Source of the DNA: a virus | Taxonomy: Duplodnaviria; Caudoviricetes | Length of the DNA: 64,000 nt | Virus record (IMG/VR): IMGVR_UViG_3300033067_001299 | Span: 7,769 to 71,768 of that record | Strand: one strand, 5' to 3' | Part shown: one piece after another, positions 8,595-38,158 of the stretch | How the letters are laid out: each line of letters begins with the position of its first letter | Position numbering within the stretch: position 1 is the stretch's first letter | Notes under the pieces: generated by a model | The model's database searches: none | Seen by the model: the letters and a program-made list of their open reading frames with translations, nothing else | Told to the model about the DNA's origin: nothing | Position numbers and translations under genes: made by a program

Positions 8595-9062
8595 TCAGTC
8601 TCCCATCTGAAGCTTAATGACGAACGTCTCGATCTGTTTCGCGGTCGTCGATGTGATCGAGCGGCTCGACAGGCGTAGCGCTGACGAGCTGTCGGTCAGC
8701 CCGATGTCGCCGTCCACTCTCGGATACAGGCTGCTGTCTCCGAGATCGTCCTCCCACTTCCAGTGCCAGCGGAACCACGAAGCGGTCCCGCTCGCGATCC
8801 CTTTCAGAACCCACGATCCGAAGTTCATCAGGCCGCCCGGCTCGATGAACTGCAACATCAGCCCTGCGCCGTTCGGGTCGTCGAACGGCACGAACACCTT
8901 TCCGTCCGTCGTGATGTTGCCGATATGTGTCGAGCTGGGAGCGAGATCGGGAGACGCCGGAGGTATGCCGCCGTACACACGTATGACGCCTCCGTTCATC
9001 ATCGCGCCGAGACCGTACTCTGCGGCGAGCGCGTTGCGAAGCCCGGTGCTGAACCTGAGCAT
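8595..9062 (-). CDS. virion structural protein, paralog of 9068..9511
   Basis: MLRFSTGLRNAL...GGVIRVYGGIPPASPD parallels MSLSVSTGLRAG...GGLIKVFSGTPPASAD. Confidence 0.6.
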   Translation of the reverse strand: MLRFSTGLRNALAAEYGLGAMMNGGVIRVYGGIPPASPDLAPSSTHIGNITTDGKVFVPFDDPNGAGLMLQFIEPGGLMNFGSWVLKGIASGTASWFRWHWKWEDDLGDSSLYPRVDGDIGLTDSSSALRLSSRSITSTTAKQIETFVIKLQMGD

Positions 9063-9067
9063 GTCGG

Positions 9068-9511
9068 TTACAGCGTCGGAAGCACGAAGCTGGCGGCACC
9101 GAGAACGCGCGCGTTCGTGGCGGCATCGGTCACGAACGTGGTGCTGCTCAACACCATGTCGCTCGTCGCCGACACCCCTACCGAACCCTGGATTCTCGGC
9201 TCGGTGGTGGAGAGCGCGCCGGTGTCGGCCGATCCGATGACTCGGAAGTAGGTGGCCGTTCCGGCGGTGGTCGCGCCCTGCCAGACCGCGCCGCCAGCTT
9301 TGCTGATCTCGCCGCTCGCCGATGTCCAGGTCAGGCCGGTGCCAGCGCCGTTGGCCGATATAGTCCACAGCACGGTTCCGGTCTGCGCCGCGTCTGCGCT
9401 CGCTGGTGGTGTGCCTGAAAAAACCTTGATCAGACCGCCGTCGAGCAACTCCTTCGCGCCGGACGAGTTCATCATGCCGGCTCGAAGGCCGGTGGAAACG
9501 CTCAGAGACAT
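9068..9511 (-). CDS. virion structural protein
   Basis: 147 aa, S/T/G/A-rich; paralogous to the neighbouring gene. Confidence 0.6.
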   Translation of the reverse strand: MSLSVSTGLRAGMMNSSGAKELLDGGLIKVFSGTPPASADAAQTGTVLWTISANGAGTGLTWTSASGEISKAGGAVWQGATTAGTATYFRVIGSADTGALSTTEPRIQGSVGVSATSDMVLSSTTFVTDAATNARVLGAASFVLPTL

Positions 9512-9515
9512 GCTA

Positions 9516-9719
9516 TCACCATTTGCCCAAAGGGCATGAACCGAACAGAACTTTCGTGGCTATCGGGCAACCGCACGCGCCACACCTGAGATAACCCATC
9601 TTGAAAAGATCGGAGTAGAGAAGCTCTTTCATCTCGCAGCCGTCGCACGCCTTTTTCCTGTACGATAAAGACTTGATATCGTCTACATGTTCCGATCTGC
9701 CGTTGTATTTCAAACGCAT
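9516..9719 (-). CDS. small Cys-rich (zinc-binding) protein
   Basis: CxxC...CxxCxC...CP pattern. Confidence 0.5.
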   Translation of the reverse strand: MRLKYNGRSEHVDDIKSLSYRKKACDGCEMKELLYSDLFKMGYLRCGACGCPIATKVLFGSCPLGKW

Positions 9720-10192
9720 TCTTCAATGCAGTCAACGTACTGCATCCAGCAAGAGCAATCGATTGAATCGAAAAACTCTATTTTTGTTATCGTGTACGAC
9801 ATTGTGCTCCTTCCGCTGAATCTTATAAACCACAAGTCTCCCAAATGAGAGTTTCCACCATCTATAAATATTCCATCCTGTATCTCGTTGTTTCCGCTTG
9901 ACAGTGCAAAATTAAGAACGCTGACGTTTATATCCCAATTATAAGAATAAGAACTGTCTGCAACATACGCAGCAAGATCATCGGTGTTTCCTTGTGCTCC
10001 ACTCGAAACGCTTACGGTAAATCTCCAGTAATCCGGCCTCTGTCCGTCCATCCATCCATCCTTGAAGAACTGCCTTATCGCGTTCGTAGAATAAACACTA
10101 TCTGGAACCCACGATGTTCCGCTCCAAGAGCCTTGCCTGCCAGAGTTTGTTTGATCCCAGTAAGAAACGTCTGTCGCATCTATCCACGGCAT
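9710..10192 (-). CDS. hypothetical protein (low GC)
   Basis: 160-aa ORF with an AT-rich codon pattern. Confidence 0.55.
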   Translation of the reverse strand: MPWIDATDVSYWDQTNSGRQGSWSGTSWVPDSVYSTNAIRQFFKDGWMDGQRPDYWRFTVSVSSGAQGNTDDLAAYVADSSYSYNWDINVSVLNFALSSGNNEIQDGIFIDGGNSHLGDLWFIRFSGRSTMSYTITKIEFFDSIDCSCWMQYVDCIEECV

Positions 10193-10204
10193 CTTCCGGT
10201 TCCT

Positions 10205-12754
10205 CTATGGGTAAAACAGCGATTCGAATCTCGGAGTCGGGAACGCGAGATAGATCGGTGTTCCTAATCCGCCGTCCGTCAGGTTCAAGAACGTGTTGTC
10301 GAAGCACGAGTAAAATAACGGGAACATTCCGACGATATCTTCGCCTGACAGCGCGACGCCTATAGGAAAACCCGTCGTGAACTGCCACCCGACAGGAGAC
10401 GGATGGCTTAACATCATCTCGAACTCTGGAATGACGTCGACCTTCCTGAACTTGAAATAAAAGTCTTCTTCGGAAAGAGTTTTGCCGAACGCCTCGTTCA
10501 TCAGCGCGACGTGCGTCGTGGACTTGCTCTCGGAGTCGTCTAACCGGACGACGTCTATCACGCACTGCTCGAAGTTGTCCGGTATTTCTTCCGAGTAGTT
10601 TACGACCGAACGCTGGCAGGCGAAAGGACCGCTGAAGATCGACCACGACCCGCTCGGATGCGCGTGGATAGCCCGGCCTGGAGCGGTCGATAGCGTAGCA
10701 CACGTCTGTCCGAAGATGCGGCTCGCCATCACGATGCCATACGGGTATCCCGAGAACGATTGGCTTCCTGGCTCCCACTCACCGAACCCGGTCTTGGTCC
10801 ACCGCATCCCGGGCCTCACGTTCGGATACCCGTCGAAGAACGAGTATATGGCCGGGTAGTAGACTCTGGCGTGACCGGAGAACAGCGGGCAGTTCGCGTA
10901 TACCGAATACGACACCGAGAGAGGAAACTCGGCCACTCCGCTCGCGATGCTGCCGTTGAAGTACGCTCTCGCGAGCGTTGACGAGAGCGTCCTCTCATCG
11001 GTCGGATGACCGTCGCGCACCGTTAGCGTCGCGGCGTCGCACGTCTTGCCTCCTACCGACGCGGTGCCGTAATACAGGTAGTCGAGCGTCGCGTTCGGGT
11101 AAATCCTGTCCGCGCTATCGATGTCCGGGTGATCGGAGGTCATGTCTAGATAGCTGGCGACGATGGGCTTCAGGAACGGGTATCCGATGGTCTTCTCGGT
11201 CTTGATCTCGTTCCACACGATCACTCGGTTGAGATTGACCTCGCAACCATAGACGTATCCTCCAGATTTTGGAGTGGCTCCTAGAGTCGCGATGACAGCG
11301 CTCAGAGATACGGCGCACGCCGACAGATCGACGGAGTTGATGTGCGCGATGAACGAGAAGTTGTTGTCGTACCACGTCTCGTCGAACGGCACGTCCGGTA
11401 TTTCTTCGAGCAGCGGGTAGAACGGCCTCGGCTCCTGATAGTATCCGACGGTGCGCTCTGTCGGAAACACTGCGTAGTACGCGAGCCATCGGCGCACCTC
11501 GGAGAACGAACCGCCGACGACGGACTGTTTGGTGATTTTGGCGATGGCAGAGAACGACGGTCGCTGCGGTATCTTCCATCCTCCATCGGGATCGATTGGA
11601 GGGCTTAACGCGCTTATGCCGATCTCGTGATCGACCGAGCATCTAATGTTGCTGGTGTAGAACTCGTATTCGAGCATCAGCAGATCGTTCGTCGAGATGC
11701 CGTCCATGTCTCTGACCGCGTAGCCGACCGCTATCGGATACCGGCCCGAATCGACGCAGTAGATCGACTGCGCGATGCCGACCGAGAAGTCGAAATCCTC
11801 TGGGTCTGGTCCTGTGATCTCTATCGAGAATGACACCTCGACCATTCCGGGGTAGTCCTCTCGAACCTCGTGCAGAAACGATCCAGACGATAGGTAAGCA
11901 GACGACGTGTATGTCTCGTCTCCCCACGCGATCTCTCGTCTCGCCACGATACACGCCGCTCGCGTACCGTCGCCGCAGAACTCCCATCGCGGCCTGATCC
12001 TGGAGAGCTGGCCGCGCAGATTGACGTCCGAGACGTCAGACCCGAGCGGCTCCAGGTTGACCCAAGAAGGCCACGGACACTCGTCGCTCTTGATGATTTC
12101 TGCCGGTATGTTGTTCTCGTTATAACCAGTTCCGGTTTCTGAGCCGAGCGGGAAGCAGTGGAACGCGCTGTCTACGTCTGCGACGATGACGAACAGACGA
12201 TTTTCCACCTTCCGCAGACAGCCTCGCTGCCACCAGTCTGACTCGAACCGCTTGTACTCGCCTTTCTTTTTCTCGAACACGACGGGAGGATAGTCGAAAC
12301 CGATATCAGCGCTAGCCCATCTCGGCGCTGGAGTCGAGCTTCCGCTAAATCGTGTCAGCGCGTGGCACGGCCACGATTGAGACCACTGCGATATCATCCA
12401 CGGATAGGTCTTTCGCTTCTTGCCGGCCGAGATCATGTGAAACTGGCTAACTCCTTGACCGTCAGGCTGATGCGCTGGATTGACTGTCAGGTAGTCGTTC
12501 GTGTTTCTCGGATCAGGGTCGTACAACCACTCGTCTGACGGTGGAATCTCGGCGCTCGACACGAGCGGAACGGCCTTGAACTTTTTGTTGAACGTCGCCT
12601 TGACCGCGTAGACGAGCGGCATGTAGCGTAACTCTGGGAGATAATCGTCCTCGTAAGTCTGATATCGGTACGGCCCGGTTCCGATGAACTGGTAGCCGGT
12701 CTCTCCGAGCGACCACCTGATGCCGCTAATATCTCGAAAGCCGTGTCCGCTCAA
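10205..12754 (-). CDS. large tail-associated protein
   Basis: 849-aa ORF coupled to tail genes; no recognisable family. Confidence 0.5.
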   Translation of the reverse strand: MSGHGFRDISGIRWSLGETGYQFIGTGPYRYQTYEDDYLPELRYMPLVYAVKATFNKKFKAVPLVSSAEIPPSDEWLYDPDPRNTNDYLTVNPAHQPDGQGVSQFHMISAGKKRKTYPWMISQWSQSWPCHALTRFSGSSTPAPRWASADIGFDYPPVVFEKKKGEYKRFESDWWQRGCLRKVENRLFVIVADVDSAFHCFPLGSETGTGYNENNIPAEIIKSDECPWPSWVNLEPLGSDVSDVNLRGQLSRIRPRWEFCGDGTRAACIVARREIAWGDETYTSSAYLSSGSFLHEVREDYPGMVEVSFSIEITGPDPEDFDFSVGIAQSIYCVDSGRYPIAVGYAVRDMDGISTNDLLMLEYEFYTSNIRCSVDHEIGISALSPPIDPDGGWKIPQRPSFSAIAKITKQSVVGGSFSEVRRWLAYYAVFPTERTVGYYQEPRPFYPLLEEIPDVPFDETWYDNNFSFIAHINSVDLSACAVSLSAVIATLGATPKSGGYVYGCEVNLNRVIVWNEIKTEKTIGYPFLKPIVASYLDMTSDHPDIDSADRIYPNATLDYLYYGTASVGGKTCDAATLTVRDGHPTDERTLSSTLARAYFNGSIASGVAEFPLSVSYSVYANCPLFSGHARVYYPAIYSFFDGYPNVRPGMRWTKTGFGEWEPGSQSFSGYPYGIVMASRIFGQTCATLSTAPGRAIHAHPSGSWSIFSGPFACQRSVVNYSEEIPDNFEQCVIDVVRLDDSESKSTTHVALMNEAFGKTLSEEDFYFKFRKVDVIPEFEMMLSHPSPVGWQFTTGFPIGVALSGEDIVGMFPLFYSCFDNTFLNLTDGGLGTPIYLAFPTPRFESLFYP

Positions 12755-27224: not shown

Positions 27225-27425
27225 TCACAGCATCAGCACGAGCACGTCGTCGTCGTCGTTTCGCCTGGTTGGAACTCTGAGTCGATCCGGGTGGCGTCTG
27301 CCTCCAGAGCTTCTCAGCACCGAACCTTCTCTCGGTCTCGTGGCGGGTAGCTCGACATCTCCAAATATAAATGACAGCAAGGAGAACGAGATCGTCGCGA
27401 ACGACCGCTCGTCAAACACCGGCAC
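27225..27425 (-). CDS. hypothetical virion-associated protein
   Basis: VFDERSFATISF...GG...DDDVLVLML pattern; coupled to neighbours. Confidence 0.45.
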   Translation of the reverse strand: MPVFDERSFATISFSLLSFIFGDVELPATRPREGSVLRSSGGRRHPDRLRVPTRRNDDDDVLVLML

Positions 27426-27921
27426 CTCTCCACTTGTCGCTCTCTGTTCCGGCTCCGAGCAGCGTCGATCCGTTCATCTTTTGAACGTCCACCGGGATGG
27501 CGGTCGCGTTCAGCGCGGCCACGACCGCTTCTGCGATCTCTGAAGCGGACGGCCCGGAGCTTCCAGATGTCGCGATGCCCTGCGCCTGCACCGGCACCGT
27601 GTACTGCACGCTGACGTTGTAGTTGCCGAGCGTCTGCACGACCGGCACGCCTCCTCCTTCGACGAACAGGTTGCCCGTGATGATCAGCGTGTGGCTCGCC
27701 TCCATCGGGCGGACACGCCAACCGTTCAGCAAAAACAAGTAGTTCGGAATGAACAGCCCGCCTCCGAGATCGTCGCCGCCAGCGTGCCGAAACGCCGGGA
27801 GATACTTTGCGTTGTCCGACAGCAGCATCCAATCTTCCCAGCGCGAGAATACTTCCTCAGCCGTGACGCTCGCGGAGTCCAGGATGATCCGCTTGGCTGC
27901 CGGATCGAAGGAGATCGCCAT
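27412..27921 (-). CDS. virion structural protein
   Basis: 169-aa ORF in the structural block. Confidence 0.55.
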   Translation of the reverse strand: MAISFDPAAKRIILDSASVTAEEVFSRWEDWMLLSDNAKYLPAFRHAGGDDLGGGLFIPNYLFLLNGWRVRPMEASHTLIITGNLFVEGGGVPVVQTLGNYNVSVQYTVPVQAQGIATSGSSGPSASEIAEAVVAALNATAIPVDVQKMNGSTLLGAGTESDKWRGAGV

Positions 27922-29272
27922 CAGGCATATGCCCGATCTGTCTCTCCGACCAGAGACAGGCCGATGGTCTTGCTGCGCGTCAGCGTTCCGGTCGCGACCG
28001 CGAACTTTCCGTAACCGGGACGGATGCCGATCAGCGTCACCGCTTTGTCGGTTCCAGCCGTGCCCCCATAGGCGTCATTGTCGTAATCGAAATCGAACAA
28101 AATCGACCCGCTGCTGATCGTGCCGGCGATGTCCGTTCCAGCCGCATTCTTGACGGTAATCGCTCCGGCCTCACCGTAGTCGTTGCCGTCCCCAGAAGGC
28201 GAGGTGTACATCATCCGATAGCTTGACCCCGCCCCCACCAGCGCGGCGTTAAAGGTGAGCGTTCCCGCAGCCGTGTAAGGGTTCTCTCGGAACGTGCCGC
28301 CGTCGTCTTTGAACTTGATGCGGTTTGAGTCGGCGGACTGGATGTTGTCGATATAGACCGACTGCGCGGTTTCCAGCGTATCGCCCACAAACGCCAATAG
28401 CGCCGCCTGAATCTTGCCTGTCTTGGTGCCATCCGTCCCGCTGGCGTTGATGTCGCTGTTCTGGCGGAGCAGGTATTGAATCTTCGTGTAAATCTGCTCT
28501 AGCGTGGCGCTGTTGCCGTCGATGATGATCTTGAAGTTGCGCGACACGCCGCCGATAGTGCGCGTCTGGTTCGCCGTATAGTAACTGACGGTAATACCGC
28601 TGTACGGAGCGCCGGTCATTGCACCATCCGCCGCCTGAATTTTCAGATCATCCTCGTTCGAGAGCAGCAGGTGACGAGATAGGCTCCGGTCGCCGTCTTG
28701 CCGGTATCGGCCAGCACGGAATCCTTGTACTTCTTGCCGTACTCGCGGCAGTATCCCTTGAAGTAGGTTCTGCTGTCGAAGTTGCCGTTGGCGGCATCTC
28801 CATAAACCTGAATGCCCTCGTTGCACTGGTCGGTAAAGGTGAAGTTCGCCGCAGCGCCGCCGCTGGTCTTCTGGTAGTAAAGCTGCGCGCCGCTCGACAC
28901 GGAACCGAGACCCACGATACCCACATATTCGCGGTTCAGTACCCCGGCACTGGAATACTCGCGCCATCCGCCGTCGCGCATCATCTGCCGCGTGGCATCA
29001 TTGGCCGGTTTCCAGCCGCTATAGTTGCCGCCCGCATCGACACCGAAATAATACTGACCAGAGAGCGCATCCAGCGCGTTCATCGGGAAGGGGCTGTCCT
29101 GATACGTCGAGGTCGCCCAAAGATCGCAGAACTTGGAGTAAAGCGCCTGGATCGTCACGCCGTCCTTCGCCACGAGATTTCCCGCGACGTTGAGCGTGAA
29201 AGTGCGGCCCGGCTCGTCAATCGTGAGTTCCGTGCCGACGCTGATCTGTGCTTTGCTCGTGATCTTTGCCAT
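27921..29272 (-). pseudogene. ~450-aa virion structural protein split by a 1-nt frameshift near 28671
   Basis: ORF 28643..29272 reads ...KTATGAYLV and ORF 27921..28967 continues LLLSNEDDLKIQ...; the junction reads GTC AC CTG CTG, one base short. Confidence 0.7.
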
Positions 29273-29281
29273 TGTGGTTCC

Positions 29282-31864
29282 TTACTGATAATTGCGGTCT
29301 GCCTGTTGCGCGCACGGCAGCGAAGCGTTTGACGATGGGAGCGTGTAGTTCCGCACGAGCGGAAGAACGACGTAGCCCGGCTTGATCACATCGATGTCCA
29401 CCGATACCGGCGTTTCGTAGGTGTAGGCCCACGTCGCCTCAGCGTTTGCATCCACCGAACCGAGGATGGTGCTCGAACCGGCAGAGCGCACCACCACGTC
29501 TGACCCAGACACCAGCCCGGTTAGTGTCAGCGTGATCGTGTCCAGCGGATACTGGTAGTCTTGCGCCGTCGTGCTGCTGTTTGTGAGCAGGTAGACCGAT
29601 GTGATCGCGGTTGTGTTGGTCGTTCCGGTCGTGATCTTGAGTTTGAGCTTGAAGCCCTTGGAGGCGTCAATGCCGGTCAGGCCGTTCAGCGCCGTACCGA
29701 GTTGCGCGGCGGTGTAACTGCTACTCGTCATCGCGCTATAGCCGTTGCCGTCGTTCTTGTCGATACTGTACTCGAACCGATAGTTGCCGACCGTACCGCC
29801 CGCCATCACGAGCGCGGAGTTCTGGAAGCCGGTGTGTCCGAGCGTGTAATACTCCATCTCGAATGTCGCTGTCATGCCGATAGTTGGCATGTAAAGCCCG
29901 CCTGCCGCCGTGAAACCGGCACCACCTGTGAGCGTGACATAGCTCGCCGTCAGCGTCGTCGGCTCGTTCATCAGAATTGCGATGAGACCTGCTGTAGTCG
30001 AGGTATAGAGGTCTTTCCAGTGCGTTCCGTAAACGGCGGTCTGCGCGGTCAACGCGCCCGTCCCGCCCATGCCTTTGACCTTCATATTCAGGCAAGCCAT
30101 CACATCCGCAGCGTCGGCATAGTCGCCGAAAACCTGCTCTTGCAGAATGCGGTTGCACGAATTGTCGCCGGTCATGATGCCGGTTCGCGTGTTTGAGCAA
30201 TACACCCGCTGCACCTTTACGTCTTGCGCGGCGGTCGTCAGTGCGTAAATCAGGCCGCAGGCATTCGCGCTACCCAACGTAACCGGCGAGGCGCGTGTGC
30301 CGATGCTCCGCAACTTGATGTTGGCTGATGCGCCGGTGACCGAGAGTAAAGCCGTATAGGGATGCGTGTTCGTCACCGGCATCGAGAGACCAGAGAACGT
30401 GGCATTGAGCGTGTTCGATGCAGCCGTCCACACATACCCCGCATAGGTCGTGACCGTCGTACCTGAGACCGCCTCGCAATAGACCGTACCCGTCACCGTG
30501 ATGTTGGTGCAGGTCGTGAAAGTCATCGCTCCCTGAATAATGACCGGATCGGTCCATGTGCAATTCTGGCAGCGTGTAGCATTGAGCGAGTACGTCGTGG
30601 CGTGGCCGCGAATCGTGTTCGCGCGGGTCGTGTCTCGCGTGAAGGTAAAACCGGAGATGTCGGTCAGCGTGTTAGTGTGTGCCCCGGATGCCGCCATCGA
30701 GACTCGCGCCCACACGCAGTCGGTGAAGGTTCCACCCGCAAAGCAGTAACTCATCGTTAGTGGAGACACCAGCAAAGCTGTCGTCGGTTTGTTGCCCACA
30801 CCAACCTTGCCGAAAGTCATCGGAGAAGCGACTTCGGAGATGCTGATCGCATCGACAAAACCGCTGTTCGAGATATTGACCGAATACGCCTGCGACACCG
30901 AGAGATACCAGGCGAAGTTGCCCTTGTCGATCTCCAGAACACCGCCGCCCGTCGTGGTGAAGTCGTAGCGCGTGCCGACCGTCGCGTTCGGGATGACGTT
31001 CGCCGTGCGCGCTGCCGTGGTGTTGTTCTCAAAGAAGATATTGGGCACCACCACCTTGCGCCCGGATGTCGGGGTGTGGCCGTTGGTTGCCGCACCGGAG
31101 TTGCCGATTCGCACCAGTCCGGCGTTGTCGATCCAGACCACCTTACCGAGTGTCGCGTCCGTGCCGGTCGTGGTCGTGGTGCCAGCGTTCGGCCAGAACT
31201 CGTAGTCGCCAGCACCGCTTGTTGCCTCGATGAACACCCCGGCCAGATAGCGCAGCGTGCCGTTGTTCGGGCATTGCATCGTCTGGTTGCTGCTGCCGGA
31301 TGTCGTTCCAAGCTCAAACCACTCGCCAGTCACGCGGAAGGTGCCGAGCCGGTTGGCGTTGATCGTGCCTGCCTCGTCGCCGTTCACCTCGATGAACCCG
31401 CGAATCGCGGCCCCGTTGGCGGTGAGCGTGAAGCCAGCGTAGGTGCCGCTGCTGATCGTTCCCGGCGTTCCTGACGCGTTTGTGACCTTGAGCCAGCCTG
31501 ACGCTCCTGTGGTGGCGGGAGCCGCCGTCAGAGAGGTGTAGATGCCGACGGTGTTGCATGTGATCCCGCCGACGGTGATCTGTGTTCCGAGCGTGAGCGT
31601 CCCGGAGCCGCCAGTGAACGGAATCATCCACACCTTCGTCCCGTCGATGTGGATTTCACCGCCCTTGGAGGCGTTGATCGTCAGGTTTCCCCAAGTCGTG
31701 CTGGTCGTTCCGCTCAGCCCGTAGCGAGAATCCTGATCGATGGTCAGCTTGAACCCGTTTGTGTCAACCGTGTCGCCGCCCGAGCGAGCCGTCGCAACGC
31801 CCCAGATTCCGGCGTTGCCCACATCGCGCAGCGTGGCGTTGGCGGCGAGAGTGTATGCGGTCAA
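29282..31864 (-). CDS. large T/G/A-rich virion protein (fibre/spike-like, beta-helix)
   Basis: 860 aa, very T/S/G/A-rich. Confidence 0.6.
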   Translation of the reverse strand: MTAYTLAANATLRDVGNAGIWGVATARSGGDTVDTNGFKLTIDQDSRYGLSGTTSTTWGNLTINASKGGEIHIDGTKVWMIPFTGGSGTLTLGTQITVGGITCNTVGIYTSLTAAPATTGASGWLKVTNASGTPGTISSGTYAGFTLTANGAAIRGFIEVNGDEAGTINANRLGTFRVTGEWFELGTTSGSSNQTMQCPNNGTLRYLAGVFIEATSGAGDYEFWPNAGTTTTTGTDATLGKVVWIDNAGLVRIGNSGAATNGHTPTSGRKVVVPNIFFENNTTAARTANVIPNATVGTRYDFTTTGGGVLEIDKGNFAWYLSVSQAYSVNISNSGFVDAISISEVASPMTFGKVGVGNKPTTALLVSPLTMSYCFAGGTFTDCVWARVSMAASGAHTNTLTDISGFTFTRDTTRANTIRGHATTYSLNATRCQNCTWTDPVIIQGAMTFTTCTNITVTGTVYCEAVSGTTVTTYAGYVWTAASNTLNATFSGLSMPVTNTHPYTALLSVTGASANIKLRSIGTRASPVTLGSANACGLIYALTTAAQDVKVQRVYCSNTRTGIMTGDNSCNRILQEQVFGDYADAADVMACLNMKVKGMGGTGALTAQTAVYGTHWKDLYTSTTAGLIAILMNEPTTLTASYVTLTGGAGFTAAGGLYMPTIGMTATFEMEYYTLGHTGFQNSALVMAGGTVGNYRFEYSIDKNDGNGYSAMTSSSYTAAQLGTALNGLTGIDASKGFKLKLKITTGTTNTTAITSVYLLTNSSTTAQDYQYPLDTITLTLTGLVSGSDVVVRSAGSSTILGSVDANAEATWAYTYETPVSVDIDVIKPGYVVLPLVRNYTLPSSNASLPCAQQADRNYQ

Positions 31865-35686: not shown

Positions 35687-38158
35687 TCAGTATTTCCTCT
35701 TCTTCGACAGGTGGCGCTCTCGCTGGATCAGCGGACGGTACGTTCCGCTCAATCCGCTCTGCGAGTAATCCGGCTTCGAGTGGCCCGGCAACTGTCGAAC
35801 ACAGGTGCAGAAGCTGTCCGGCACATCGTCGTGTACTCCTTTCGTCGGGAAGGCGTCCATCTCGTCGATGAAGTCCTTGTTCCACGGCGCTCGTACGATC
35901 TCGACCTGTCCCTGTTGCCACAGCGATGCCGGCGAGTTCGCTCCTCCAGACGCGATTGCGACCTTGTTCTTCGTGATAGTGCGAGACAGCACGGTGAAGT
36001 CGTAGAGCGCTCCGACGAACGACTCCTTCTGCGACTTGCCGGACTGGCCCGGGTCTTGCGGCAGCAGAATCCAGGTGTCCTTGCCGTCTCGAACCGCGAT
36101 GGTCTTGACGAGACTCTCGATCACGGCCGCTTTCCGGCGAACTCGGATCATGTCGGCCACCACGATCTTGCCGTTGCTACGGCGCCCGATCAGCAGCCCG
36201 ACCGTGTAATCCGGGTCTCGTCCGTCGCCCTCTTCTGTCGCGGCCAAGTCCCAACTGCGAATCCACTTGACCACGTCGGTCGGACGCCAGTCGATGACCG
36301 TGATCGCGTCGCGAGGGAAGTAGTCTCCGGCCTGCGGGCGAACCTTCCAGTTGCCGTCGAGCAATCGCGCGCGCTCGACTCGCGTCAGAGCCTTCAGGTT
36401 GCTGAGATAGGCCGGGTCTTTCTTGAGCAGGATCGGGTTGTCGGTTATCTTCGCAGGGATGAATGTGAAACTCTTCGGGTCGAGCGGCTCGCATCCGTGT
36501 CTCGACACCAGCTCCTCTATCGAGTCGCCCCAGTGCATCTCGTTGTTGGATCTGACGAAGTATCGGATGACTCCACTTCTTTCCTGTATCGGCAACCCGT
36601 AATTCGGGCTGCTGTTGTCCTGCTCGATCCACCACTCAAGAAGCTCTGCCACCCAACTTTCAGCGTCAGGATTCGTAGTGGCTCTGATGTAGGGCCGAAC
36701 CCCGCTGGTGCTGCGGTTTCGAGAGAACATATAGGTCCACTGAAAGTTGCTATTTCCTGTCCATAAATACCTTCCGTTTCTTCTCATTAAAAAGTTTTCG
36801 TTCTTTTTAACAGTCAAACAATAAATATTTCCTTCATATTTGCTTGTTTTAATATTCTTTGAATTTACCTGATAATGACTTCTTTTCTTCGTACTAACAA
36901 TCAGTCTCCATACATCATACTTTCCAGCTACAAAACCATATCCTTTTGTCGATATTCTACCGCACAAAAAGTAAAGTTCCTGAAGGTCGTCAATTAAGCC
37001 TTCGTTTGCAAGACCAAAACTAATTGCTCCATTTGGCCTTACATGACCATCACCATTCGTAAAAGCATCAAGAAATAAATTGATTTGTCTTGGAGACAGA
37101 CCAAAAACCCATCGAGGAACCCTCTTTTCGTAAGTATTACCAAAACCAACCAACTCTTCATAAAGTTGACGGCTAAATATTTTATATTGACCATCCTTTG
37201 ATTTTGAATACCTCCAAGGAATTCGATCAAGAACATCTTCAAGCAACTTCTGTCCTTCTGGTTTCGTTTGCCTAATAGAAACCACTCTGCTTTTTGTTCT
37301 ATTTTTAAACTGAAAACAACAACCTTCAGAAAGATACCATCCAAAGAAACTCAACCAATCATCCATTGGCATATATTCAACATTGGAGTTTGTGTTATTA
37401 TCTCCATAACCCCTTCCAGTTATTATATCAAAAAACTTATACTCTTCTTCAGATCCAATCCAACCACCAGTTCTAGGAATATAACTTGTTGCTAAGTCTT
37501 TCGCCTCAACAAACTTCCATGAATTAAAACTCCATTTTTTGTCTCTATAGGACGGACTATCAACCATCATCTTATGATTTGGAGTTACTTTAAAATTCAA
37601 ACTACCTTCTTCATAACAAACCATATCACCAGAATAATAGTCTTTATATACATAAGAAACTTCTTGATATTGGATCTCTCTGTTTTTTGAGAGAGACGCA
37701 ACCTTTTCACCAACACTAATATCCTTGATTAATTTCCAACCATCACCAGTTAGAGCTTCTGTTTCTTCGTCAACACAGAAATGAGTCAATTCGTCGTAAC
37801 CGATAAAAGGAATCTGACTCCCTTGCCAGCTCAGCACGTCGCTCTCTTGGTTGAGGTGGCGAAACGAAATGCGCGCACCGCTCGGAAAGATGAAATGCGG
37901 ATAAGGCTGCGAGCGATACTCTCCGCCGAGATGCGGATAGAGTTGCAACGCCGTGTCTCTCAGTCCGCCCTCGTTGGTGATCATCGTCTGCTCGCGACGG
38001 AAGATCACCCCACCGTAATCCGGGTTGCCGATATTGCGAGACGCTTCCAAAAGAAGACCAAACGATTTCGAAGACCCTGCCGACCCTCCGAATACAGCAA
38101 CGTCGGCAGAGCACGACAGGAACGCCGTTTGCGGCCCAGGATTAGGTCTTATTTCCAC
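35687..38158 (-). CDS. terL: terminase large subunit interrupted by an intein
   Basis: Walker A GGSAGSSKS, Walker B IGYDE, C-terminal RuvC-like domain (RSWDLAA, DPDYT, HDDVPD). Confidence 0.92.
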   Translation of the reverse strand: MEIRPNPGPQTAFLSCSADVAVFGGSAGSSKSFGLLLEASRNIGNPDYGGVIFRREQTMITNEGGLRDTALQLYPHLGGEYRSQPYPHFIFPSGARISFRHLNQESDVLSWQGSQIPFIGYDELTHFCVDEETEALTGDGWKLIKDISVGEKVASLSKNREIQYQEVSYVYKDYYSGDMVCYEEGSLNFKVTPNHKMMVDSPSYRDKKWSFNSWKFVEAKDLATSYIPRTGGWIGSEEEYKFFDIITGRGYGDNNTNSNVEYMPMDDWLSFFGWYLSEGCCFQFKNRTKSRVVSIRQTKPEGQKLLEDVLDRIPWRYSKSKDGQYKIFSRQLYEELVGFGNTYEKRVPRWVFGLSPRQINLFLDAFTNGDGHVRPNGAISFGLANEGLIDDLQELYFLCGRISTKGYGFVAGKYDVWRLIVSTKKRSHYQVNSKNIKTSKYEGNIYCLTVKKNENFLMRRNGRYLWTGNSNFQWTYMFSRNRSTSGVRPYIRATTNPDAESWVAELLEWWIEQDNSSPNYGLPIQERSGVIRYFVRSNNEMHWGDSIEELVSRHGCEPLDPKSFTFIPAKITDNPILLKKDPAYLSNLKALTRVERARLLDGNWKVRPQAGDYFPRDAITVIDWRPTDVVKWIRSWDLAATEEGDGRDPDYTVGLLIGRRSNGKIVVADMIRVRRKAAVIESLVKTIAVRDGKDTWILLPQDPGQSGKSQKESFVGALYDFTVLSRTITKNKVAIASGGANSPASLWQQGQVEIVRAPWNKDFIDEMDAFPTKGVHDDVPDSFCTCVRQLPGHSKPDYSQSGLSGTYRPLIQRERHLSKKRKY
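36752..37777 (-). mobile_element. 342-aa intein with LAGLIDADG homing endonuclease
   Basis: Starts CVDEETEALT and ends LWTGN before Ser. Contains FFGWYLSEG and FLDAFTNGDG motifs. Sharp AT-rich island. Confidence 0.92.

Follow-up and report, generated by a model that had tools for sequence, protein, structure and literature searches.

The closest described relatives of the locus treated here are the dual-repeat TIGR-TasA systems, represented by FpTasA of Flavonifractor plautii, in which a nuclease-free Nop protein is followed by an array of edge and loop repeats (Faure et al. 2025, PMC12045711). In TIGR targeting, spacer A addresses one strand and spacer B the adjoining part of the other; cleavage occurs at spacer base 5 and leaves 8-nt 3' overhangs, and gaps of 0-2 bp are tolerated (Faure et al. 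2025, PMC12045711). The published TIGR nucleases accept single mismatches near the spacer ends only: two edge mismatches that are otherwise tolerated abolish editing by ParTasR when they are combined, and adjacent double mismatches abolish cleavage by SpTasH. The seed of TaTasR has been placed at positions 4-5, and this nuclease, when over-expressed, nicked an accidental site in the E. coli gene wcaD that was matched at 9/9 and 6/9 (Faure et al. 2025, PMC12045711). When TasA or dead TasR was guided into a gene, transcription was reported to be repressed (Xu et al. 2026, bioRxiv 10.64898/2026.09.09.750476). A self-target of a nuclease-free TasA would thus not be lethal. The natural targets of TIGR systems are not yet assignable, and their short spacers yield many false matches, as stated both in the discovery paper (Faure et al. 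2025, PMC12045711) and in a 2026 survey. If a target in the virion gene of a phage were verified, it would reveal the purpose of the phage TasA systems, and also how self is discriminated from foreign DNA without a PAM. Guides that are carried by a mobile element and nearly match one of its own genes or a gene of a competitor, without cleavage, are likewise found in the CRISPR arrays of phages and plasmids (type IV, V-M). However, these belong to an unrelated protein family and use a single spacer of 30-plus nt and a PAM, and their matches are statistically far more secure than one of 18 nt.

The stretch examined here, referred to below as the window, consists of the last 64 kb of one 71,768-bp virus record; the whole genome was used for the guide scans. 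The window carries a tas gene and an array that share with the FpTasA-type systems the order of nuclease-free Nop protein and edge/loop array, the two 9-nt spacers, the 36-nt period, the truncated first edge repeat, the CCA (box C) ends and the location on a phage. The box D reads AG in this phage, whereas it is UG in TaTasR. The features of the system are, in window coordinates:

2115-2143, plus strand: sigma-70-like promoter upstream of tas, agreeing with 11/12 consensus positions and having an extended -10 TG
2205-3071, plus strand: tasA-like gene, 288 aa, with a C-terminal Nop domain homologous to those of TaTasR and SpTasH
3066-3434, plus strand: dual-repeat TIGR array, beginning at the tas stop codon
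3174-3209, plus strand: array unit 3, in which a 9-nt edge repeat precedes spacer A and a 9-nt loop repeat separates spacer A from spacer B
3183-3191, plus strand: spacer A of unit 3; mismatched at bases 1-3, with bases 4-9 reading the same as 28139-28144 of the plus strand
3201-3209, plus strand: spacer B of unit 3; 9/9 complementary to the plus strand at 28145-28153

In phmmer searches against PDB sequences, the Nop domain of TaTasR (PDB 9mty, E=2.1e-13) is matched by residues 105-275 of the Tas protein, and SpTasH is matched as well (E=7.4e-5). The other matches of the protein are to phrog_4285 and, weakly, to Pfam Transposase_20. The N-terminal ~104 aa gave no nuclease match, and no RuvC or HNH domain and no Pfam nuclease hit were found at the sequence level. 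The predicted architecture of the 288-aa protein is that of a TasA, nuclease-free and with a Nop domain only. Near its C-terminus, Y275 and H284 are invariant in 117 relatives and are candidates for the Tyr/His dyad which, at the C-terminus of dual-repeat Tas proteins, is reported to process their guide RNAs.

The array comprises nine regular units, each made of a 9-nt edge repeat, a 9-nt spacer A, a 9-nt loop repeat and a 9-nt spacer B. Its first edge repeat is truncated and overlaps the tas stop codon, one of the nine units measures 35 nt where the period is otherwise 36 nt, and a last, extra unit is degenerate. In nearly all units, AG stands at the start and CCA at the end of both the edge and the loop repeat, a symmetric box D/box C arrangement that is explained by the TasR structure. 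The repeats and the 9+9+9+9 register recur in the arrays of 30 of the 34 IMG/VR loci that encode Tas relatives (51-63% identity). The sequence-only reading of this DNA had taken a match in a virion gene as support for a 9+9 register. That register is correct and, since it is fixed by the array itself and by the 30 related loci, it stands without the match. An assignment of the semi-conserved final bases of spacer A to the loop repeat was rejected, as this position is variable in relatives. Judged by sequence, the array at 3066-3434 and the 288-aa protein preceding it can be firmly identified as a genuine dual-repeat TIGR-TasA system.

Neighbouring guides of the array are paralogous. Units 3 and 4 (3174-3245) have 12/18 spacer positions in common, the first two B spacers (3093-3101 and 3129-3137) share 7/9, and the last B spacer (3380-3388) recurs after the final unit (3426-3434). 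These likenesses suggest that arrays expand through the duplication of units and their later divergence by point changes, and so have a bearing on the origin of the spacers.

We searched both strands of the whole 71,768-bp genome with each of the nine guides in either order. Only one match of at least 15/18 was found for any guide in either order, that of guide 3 (unit 3) in a gene related to gene 53 of Synechococcus phage Syn5:

28136-28153, plus strand: 18-bp site nearly cognate to guide 3, matched over 15 contiguous bases (28139-28153)
27921-29272, minus strand: Syn5 gene 53 homologue that holds the site; structural protein, ~450 aa in relatives

Spacer A followed by the reverse complement of spacer B agrees with the plus strand of the site at 15/18, contiguously across the A/B junction; both the coordinates and the extent of this match, as first reported from the sequence, proved exact in our rescan of the nine guides. 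The mismatches, at 28136-28138, correspond to spacer A bases 1-3 and are box-C-proximal, at one outer end of the site. Spacer B is predicted to pair at 9/9 with the plus strand, the template strand of the gene, at 28145-28153. Spacer A, because its bases 4-9 are identical to the plus strand, would pair with the minus strand at 28139-28144, that is at 6/9. The order of the two spacers was derived here by working both orders through the published text of the cleavage rules: A followed by the reverse complement of B on one strand leads to 3' overhangs, the opposite order to 5' overhangs. As the published overhangs are 3', the former arrangement is the a priori correct one. The guide-3 match thus fits the geometry of a TIGR target, with opposite strands, adjacent 9-bp halves and a gap of 0.

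The rarity of such a match was estimated by shuffling the nine guides 6000 times and scanning the whole genome on both strands in the published geometry, with the array masked. A run of at least 15 occurred in 18 of the 6000 shuffled guide sets (p=0.003), and Markov models (order 0-4) fitted to the genome predict 0.0023-0.0026 sites with such a run. The longest runs were 13 for mismatched A/B pairings (n=72) and 12 for six wrong geometries, and 385 real guides from related arrays gave no run above 14 in this genome. A different picture emerges from the plain Hamming count, since at least 15/18 is reached by 26% of the shuffled sets (p=0.26) and by 6 of the 72 mismatched pairings. By mismatch count, the guide-3 match is ordinary; its rarity rests on contiguity, a criterion that was picked post hoc though it is biologically sensible. 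When two orders and gaps of 0-2 are allowed, p rises to about 0.02; separately, Bonferroni correction over 16 TIGR phage records (this genome and 15 related ones) gives a value near 0.05. The match, its geometry and its local rarity are established by these observations. The sequence-only reading had rated the match as suggestive and not proven, with a chance of 1e-4 per 15-mer and of ~1e-2 overall, and our shuffles show that these estimates were of the right size. The search that it had proposed, of nine guides in two orders against shuffled controls, singles out guide 3 as the sole case of at least 15/18, with runs of 15 or more in only 18 of the shuffled sets.

The match had been assigned to a virion gene, and this assignment holds: the gene shows full-length homology to Syn5 gene 53, annotated as a structural protein (36% identity, E=1e-62), and it is located in the head module. 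In Syn5 itself, gp53 is one of two proteins that make up the 'horn'. The gene order in this module is terminase, portal, an 860-aa gene, the target gene, a 169-aa gene, protease and decoration, and the genes from terminase to decoration form a long co-directional late operon. The open reading frame at 27921-28967 is the distal part of the Syn5-gene-53-like gene, which is present in two overlapping frames (region 28643-28967) through a 1-nt deletion near 28672. This deletion was called against a homologue with 94% protein and 86% DNA identity, and the relatives have a single open reading frame of ~450 aa. The split of the frame near 28672 may be an assembly error, the mark of a pseudogene or a programmed frameshift. 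The predicted fold of the target protein is all-beta and multi-domain. Its fold matches are at low TM only, some to structural proteins of phages and others to proteins of Ig-like or pilin-like type, and the sequence homology to Syn5 gene 53 is more informative. Read on the minus strand, the 18-bp site falls in the codons for V-K-N-A-A-G-T, about codons 375-381 of the full-length protein. Among 116 relatives, this patch ranks 8 of 444 seven-residue windows by variability, with invariant flanks in a protein that is otherwise highly conserved. Such a variable patch would fit an exposed loop and, equally, escape from targeting, and is without power to discriminate between the two.

The target gene belongs to a block of three genes (860-1091 aa, ~450 aa and ~167 aa) that stands just before the capsid genes, at 27412-31864 of the window as compared with 6716-11856 of locus L115 and 6715-11856 of locus L118. 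The head modules in which this block is found differ, being either lambda-like (GpA terminase, Phage_portal_2) or provided with a P22-type portal and SU10 adaptors. In both types, the middle protein of ~450 aa is ~90% identical to the copy of this phage. The block thus appears to move between phage lineages.

We then looked for corroboration in related phages. Of the 15 related TIGR-carrying records, five are larger (27-143 kb, with 83 guides in total) and ten are shorter (8.5-24 kb, with 182 guides), and none of their 265 guides has a self-match with a run above 13. The longest self-runs in these records are 10-13, with set-wise p values from 0.04 to 1.0, which corresponds to chance scatter. 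The lowest of these values belongs to L198 (record G010, 18.8 kb), whose 13-nt self-run (set-wise p about 0.04) is within expectation among 15 records. Self-matching is not a trait of this TIGR clade. Moreover, in the closest relative of the Tas protein (86% identity, on a syntenic 79-kb contig), the spacers of the array are entirely different.

The target gene has relatives in the thousands, and its DNA homologues were compared at 79 IMG/VR loci and in 5 closer metagenomic sequences. At the homologous position in these 84 DNA homologues, nothing exceeds 15/18 to guide 3 and the mismatches are scattered; the 120 nearest protein relatives all lack the peptide that a perfect guide-3 site would specify. 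A search of IMG/VR for perfect guide targets, as proposed earlier, returned no gapless 18-mer for guide 3 and one match with a 1-nt gap, in an unrelated ORF. Five other guides gave 0-3 gapless matches each in the same database, all unrelated, and no contig was matched by two guides. Perfect guide-3 18-mers do exist elsewhere: metagenome contigs contain 13 of them and species genomes 22. None of these 35 is located in a target-gene homologue or in a similar phage, and they are found in unrelated genes from scattered taxa; the 22 found in the genome collection compare with a chance expectation estimated at about 17. When 394 guides of the clade were run against 819 kb of related DNA, no excess of matches to 85 homologue loci over five wrong geometries was detected. 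Guide 4, the 12/18 paralogue of guide 3, was considered as a guide for another allele of the site and rejected, its best match being 12/18 with a first base that clashes with an invariant position.

With three consecutive mismatches, pairing at the guide-3 site falls short of the complementarity needed by the published TIGR nucleases, although the mismatched bases 1-3 are clear of the positions that form the TaTasR seed. A present-day function at 28136-28153 is unlikely, given mismatch limits that come from the nucleases TasR and TasH. The nearest precedent is the wcaD off-target, of the same 15/18 grade, with spacer B at 9/9 and spacer A at 6/9 on the adjacent opposite strand (Faure et al. 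2025). In that case, however, the site was in 4.6 Mb of foreign DNA, the nuclease was over-expressed and the readout was nicking, whereas here the site is in the phage's own 72-kb genome and the protein is nuclease-free. Similarly, a nuclease-free Tas protein and its guide could block transcription inside a gene, as TasA and dead TasR do, but the cases reported by Xu et al. (2026, bioRxiv 10.64898/2026.09.09.750476) are engineered and fully matched, and natural targets are stated there to be undetermined.

On balance, we lean towards considering the guide-3 match as a coincidental near-match and neither a working nor an evolved target. Chance is favoured because the independent tests all gave chance-level results, the statistic is post hoc and subject to a look-elsewhere correction, three mismatches are present and the field itself warns of false targets; we likewise infer that the site lacks a function. 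It is of the same grade as the accidental 9/9 plus 6/9 off-target of TaTasR in wcaD. Several points were counted against chance. The 15-nt run spans the junction and is rare in a geometry that was set a priori, the mismatched pairs, the wrong geometries and the real guides all remaining below 15. Its mismatches are clustered at one end, away from the seed, as they would be in a tolerated or deliberately spared site, and one can add the highly variable patch, the repression exerted by TasA and the action of TaTasR on a 9/9 plus 6/9 site in vivo. That the three mismatches serve self-avoidance had been proposed from the sequence, and the proposal has gained no support; with these data it is indistinguishable from chance. 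A rival explanation is that guide 3 is aimed at another allele of the gene-53-like gene in a competitor, the phage's own copy escaping through the three unpaired bases. We consider this a tentative possibility, well short of probable. The geometry is the correct one and the run is locally rare, and the high mismatch sensitivity of TIGR systems would turn three mismatches into a clean discrimination between self and non-self. The site lies in the variable patch, and alleles with Ala for Gly at a mismatched codon exist. Since the gene-53-like block is common to lambda-like and P22-portal-like head modules, competitors sharing the target gene are plausible, and the gene and its two flanking genes indeed appear to move between very different phages at ~90% protein identity. 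Competition between elements is also the TasA role favoured by the discoverers, and if this explanation were true, guide 3 would be the first case of a dual-repeat phage TIGR-TasA system with a natural target and with a rule that separates self from non-self. The comparison of relatives speaks against it, as no homologue with a perfect or better site, that is above 15/18, was found among the 84 DNA and 120 protein relatives, so that the aim at a related competitor suggested by the sequence-only reading finds no support. The perfect 18-mer is absent from IMG/VR and elsewhere occurs in unrelated contexts only, no further guide from this or related arrays is directed at the target gene family, and the reach of any one guide against a hypervariable patch would be narrow.

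It is tempting to suggest that the phage regulates itself, the nuclease-free Tas protein and guide 3 binding weakly within its own head-module operon, between portal and protease, and forming a leaky roadblock to transcription. Repression by TasA and dead TasR, the position of the site in a long co-directional late operon and the engagement of a 9/9 plus 6/9 site by TaTasR in vivo are all consistent with this. We nevertheless find it unlikely, because a full match would be expected of a regulatory site under selection and the tolerance published for TIGR-Tas does not extend to three mismatches, because the site is mid-gene and no promoter-like element was found near 28136-28153, and because guide 3 is not retained in the closest relative. 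The related phages have no self-targets either, and regulation of the phage's own gene, which had also been put forward, is left without support when self-matching is not a habit of the clade. Less probable still is that the site is a relic, guide 3 or its ancestor having once been perfect for this locus, either derived from it or selected on it, before the guide or the gene drifted. The 12/18 identity of units 3 and 4 points to duplication followed by point divergence, and the positions common to both units match the site at 11/12. This last figure, however, is not independent of the 15/18 match, and TIGR systems are not known to take up spacers by any mechanism. In addition, the mismatched codons carry the commonest residues of the family, so that the gene side does not look recently changed. 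The guide-3 match stands as a candidate rather than a finding, and it illustrates how much weight an 18-nt match can bear, with a local p of 0.003 and no corroboration. Comparison of the native with the perfect 18-mer offers a cheap and well-defined test case.

The head module that holds the site has a further peculiarity. Its large terminase (823 aa, 35687-38158, minus strand) is matched by terminase families at residues 5-130 and 470-792 only. The intervening insert of ~340 aa partly matches a PHROG family named thymidylate synthase, and could represent either an intein or a domain insertion.
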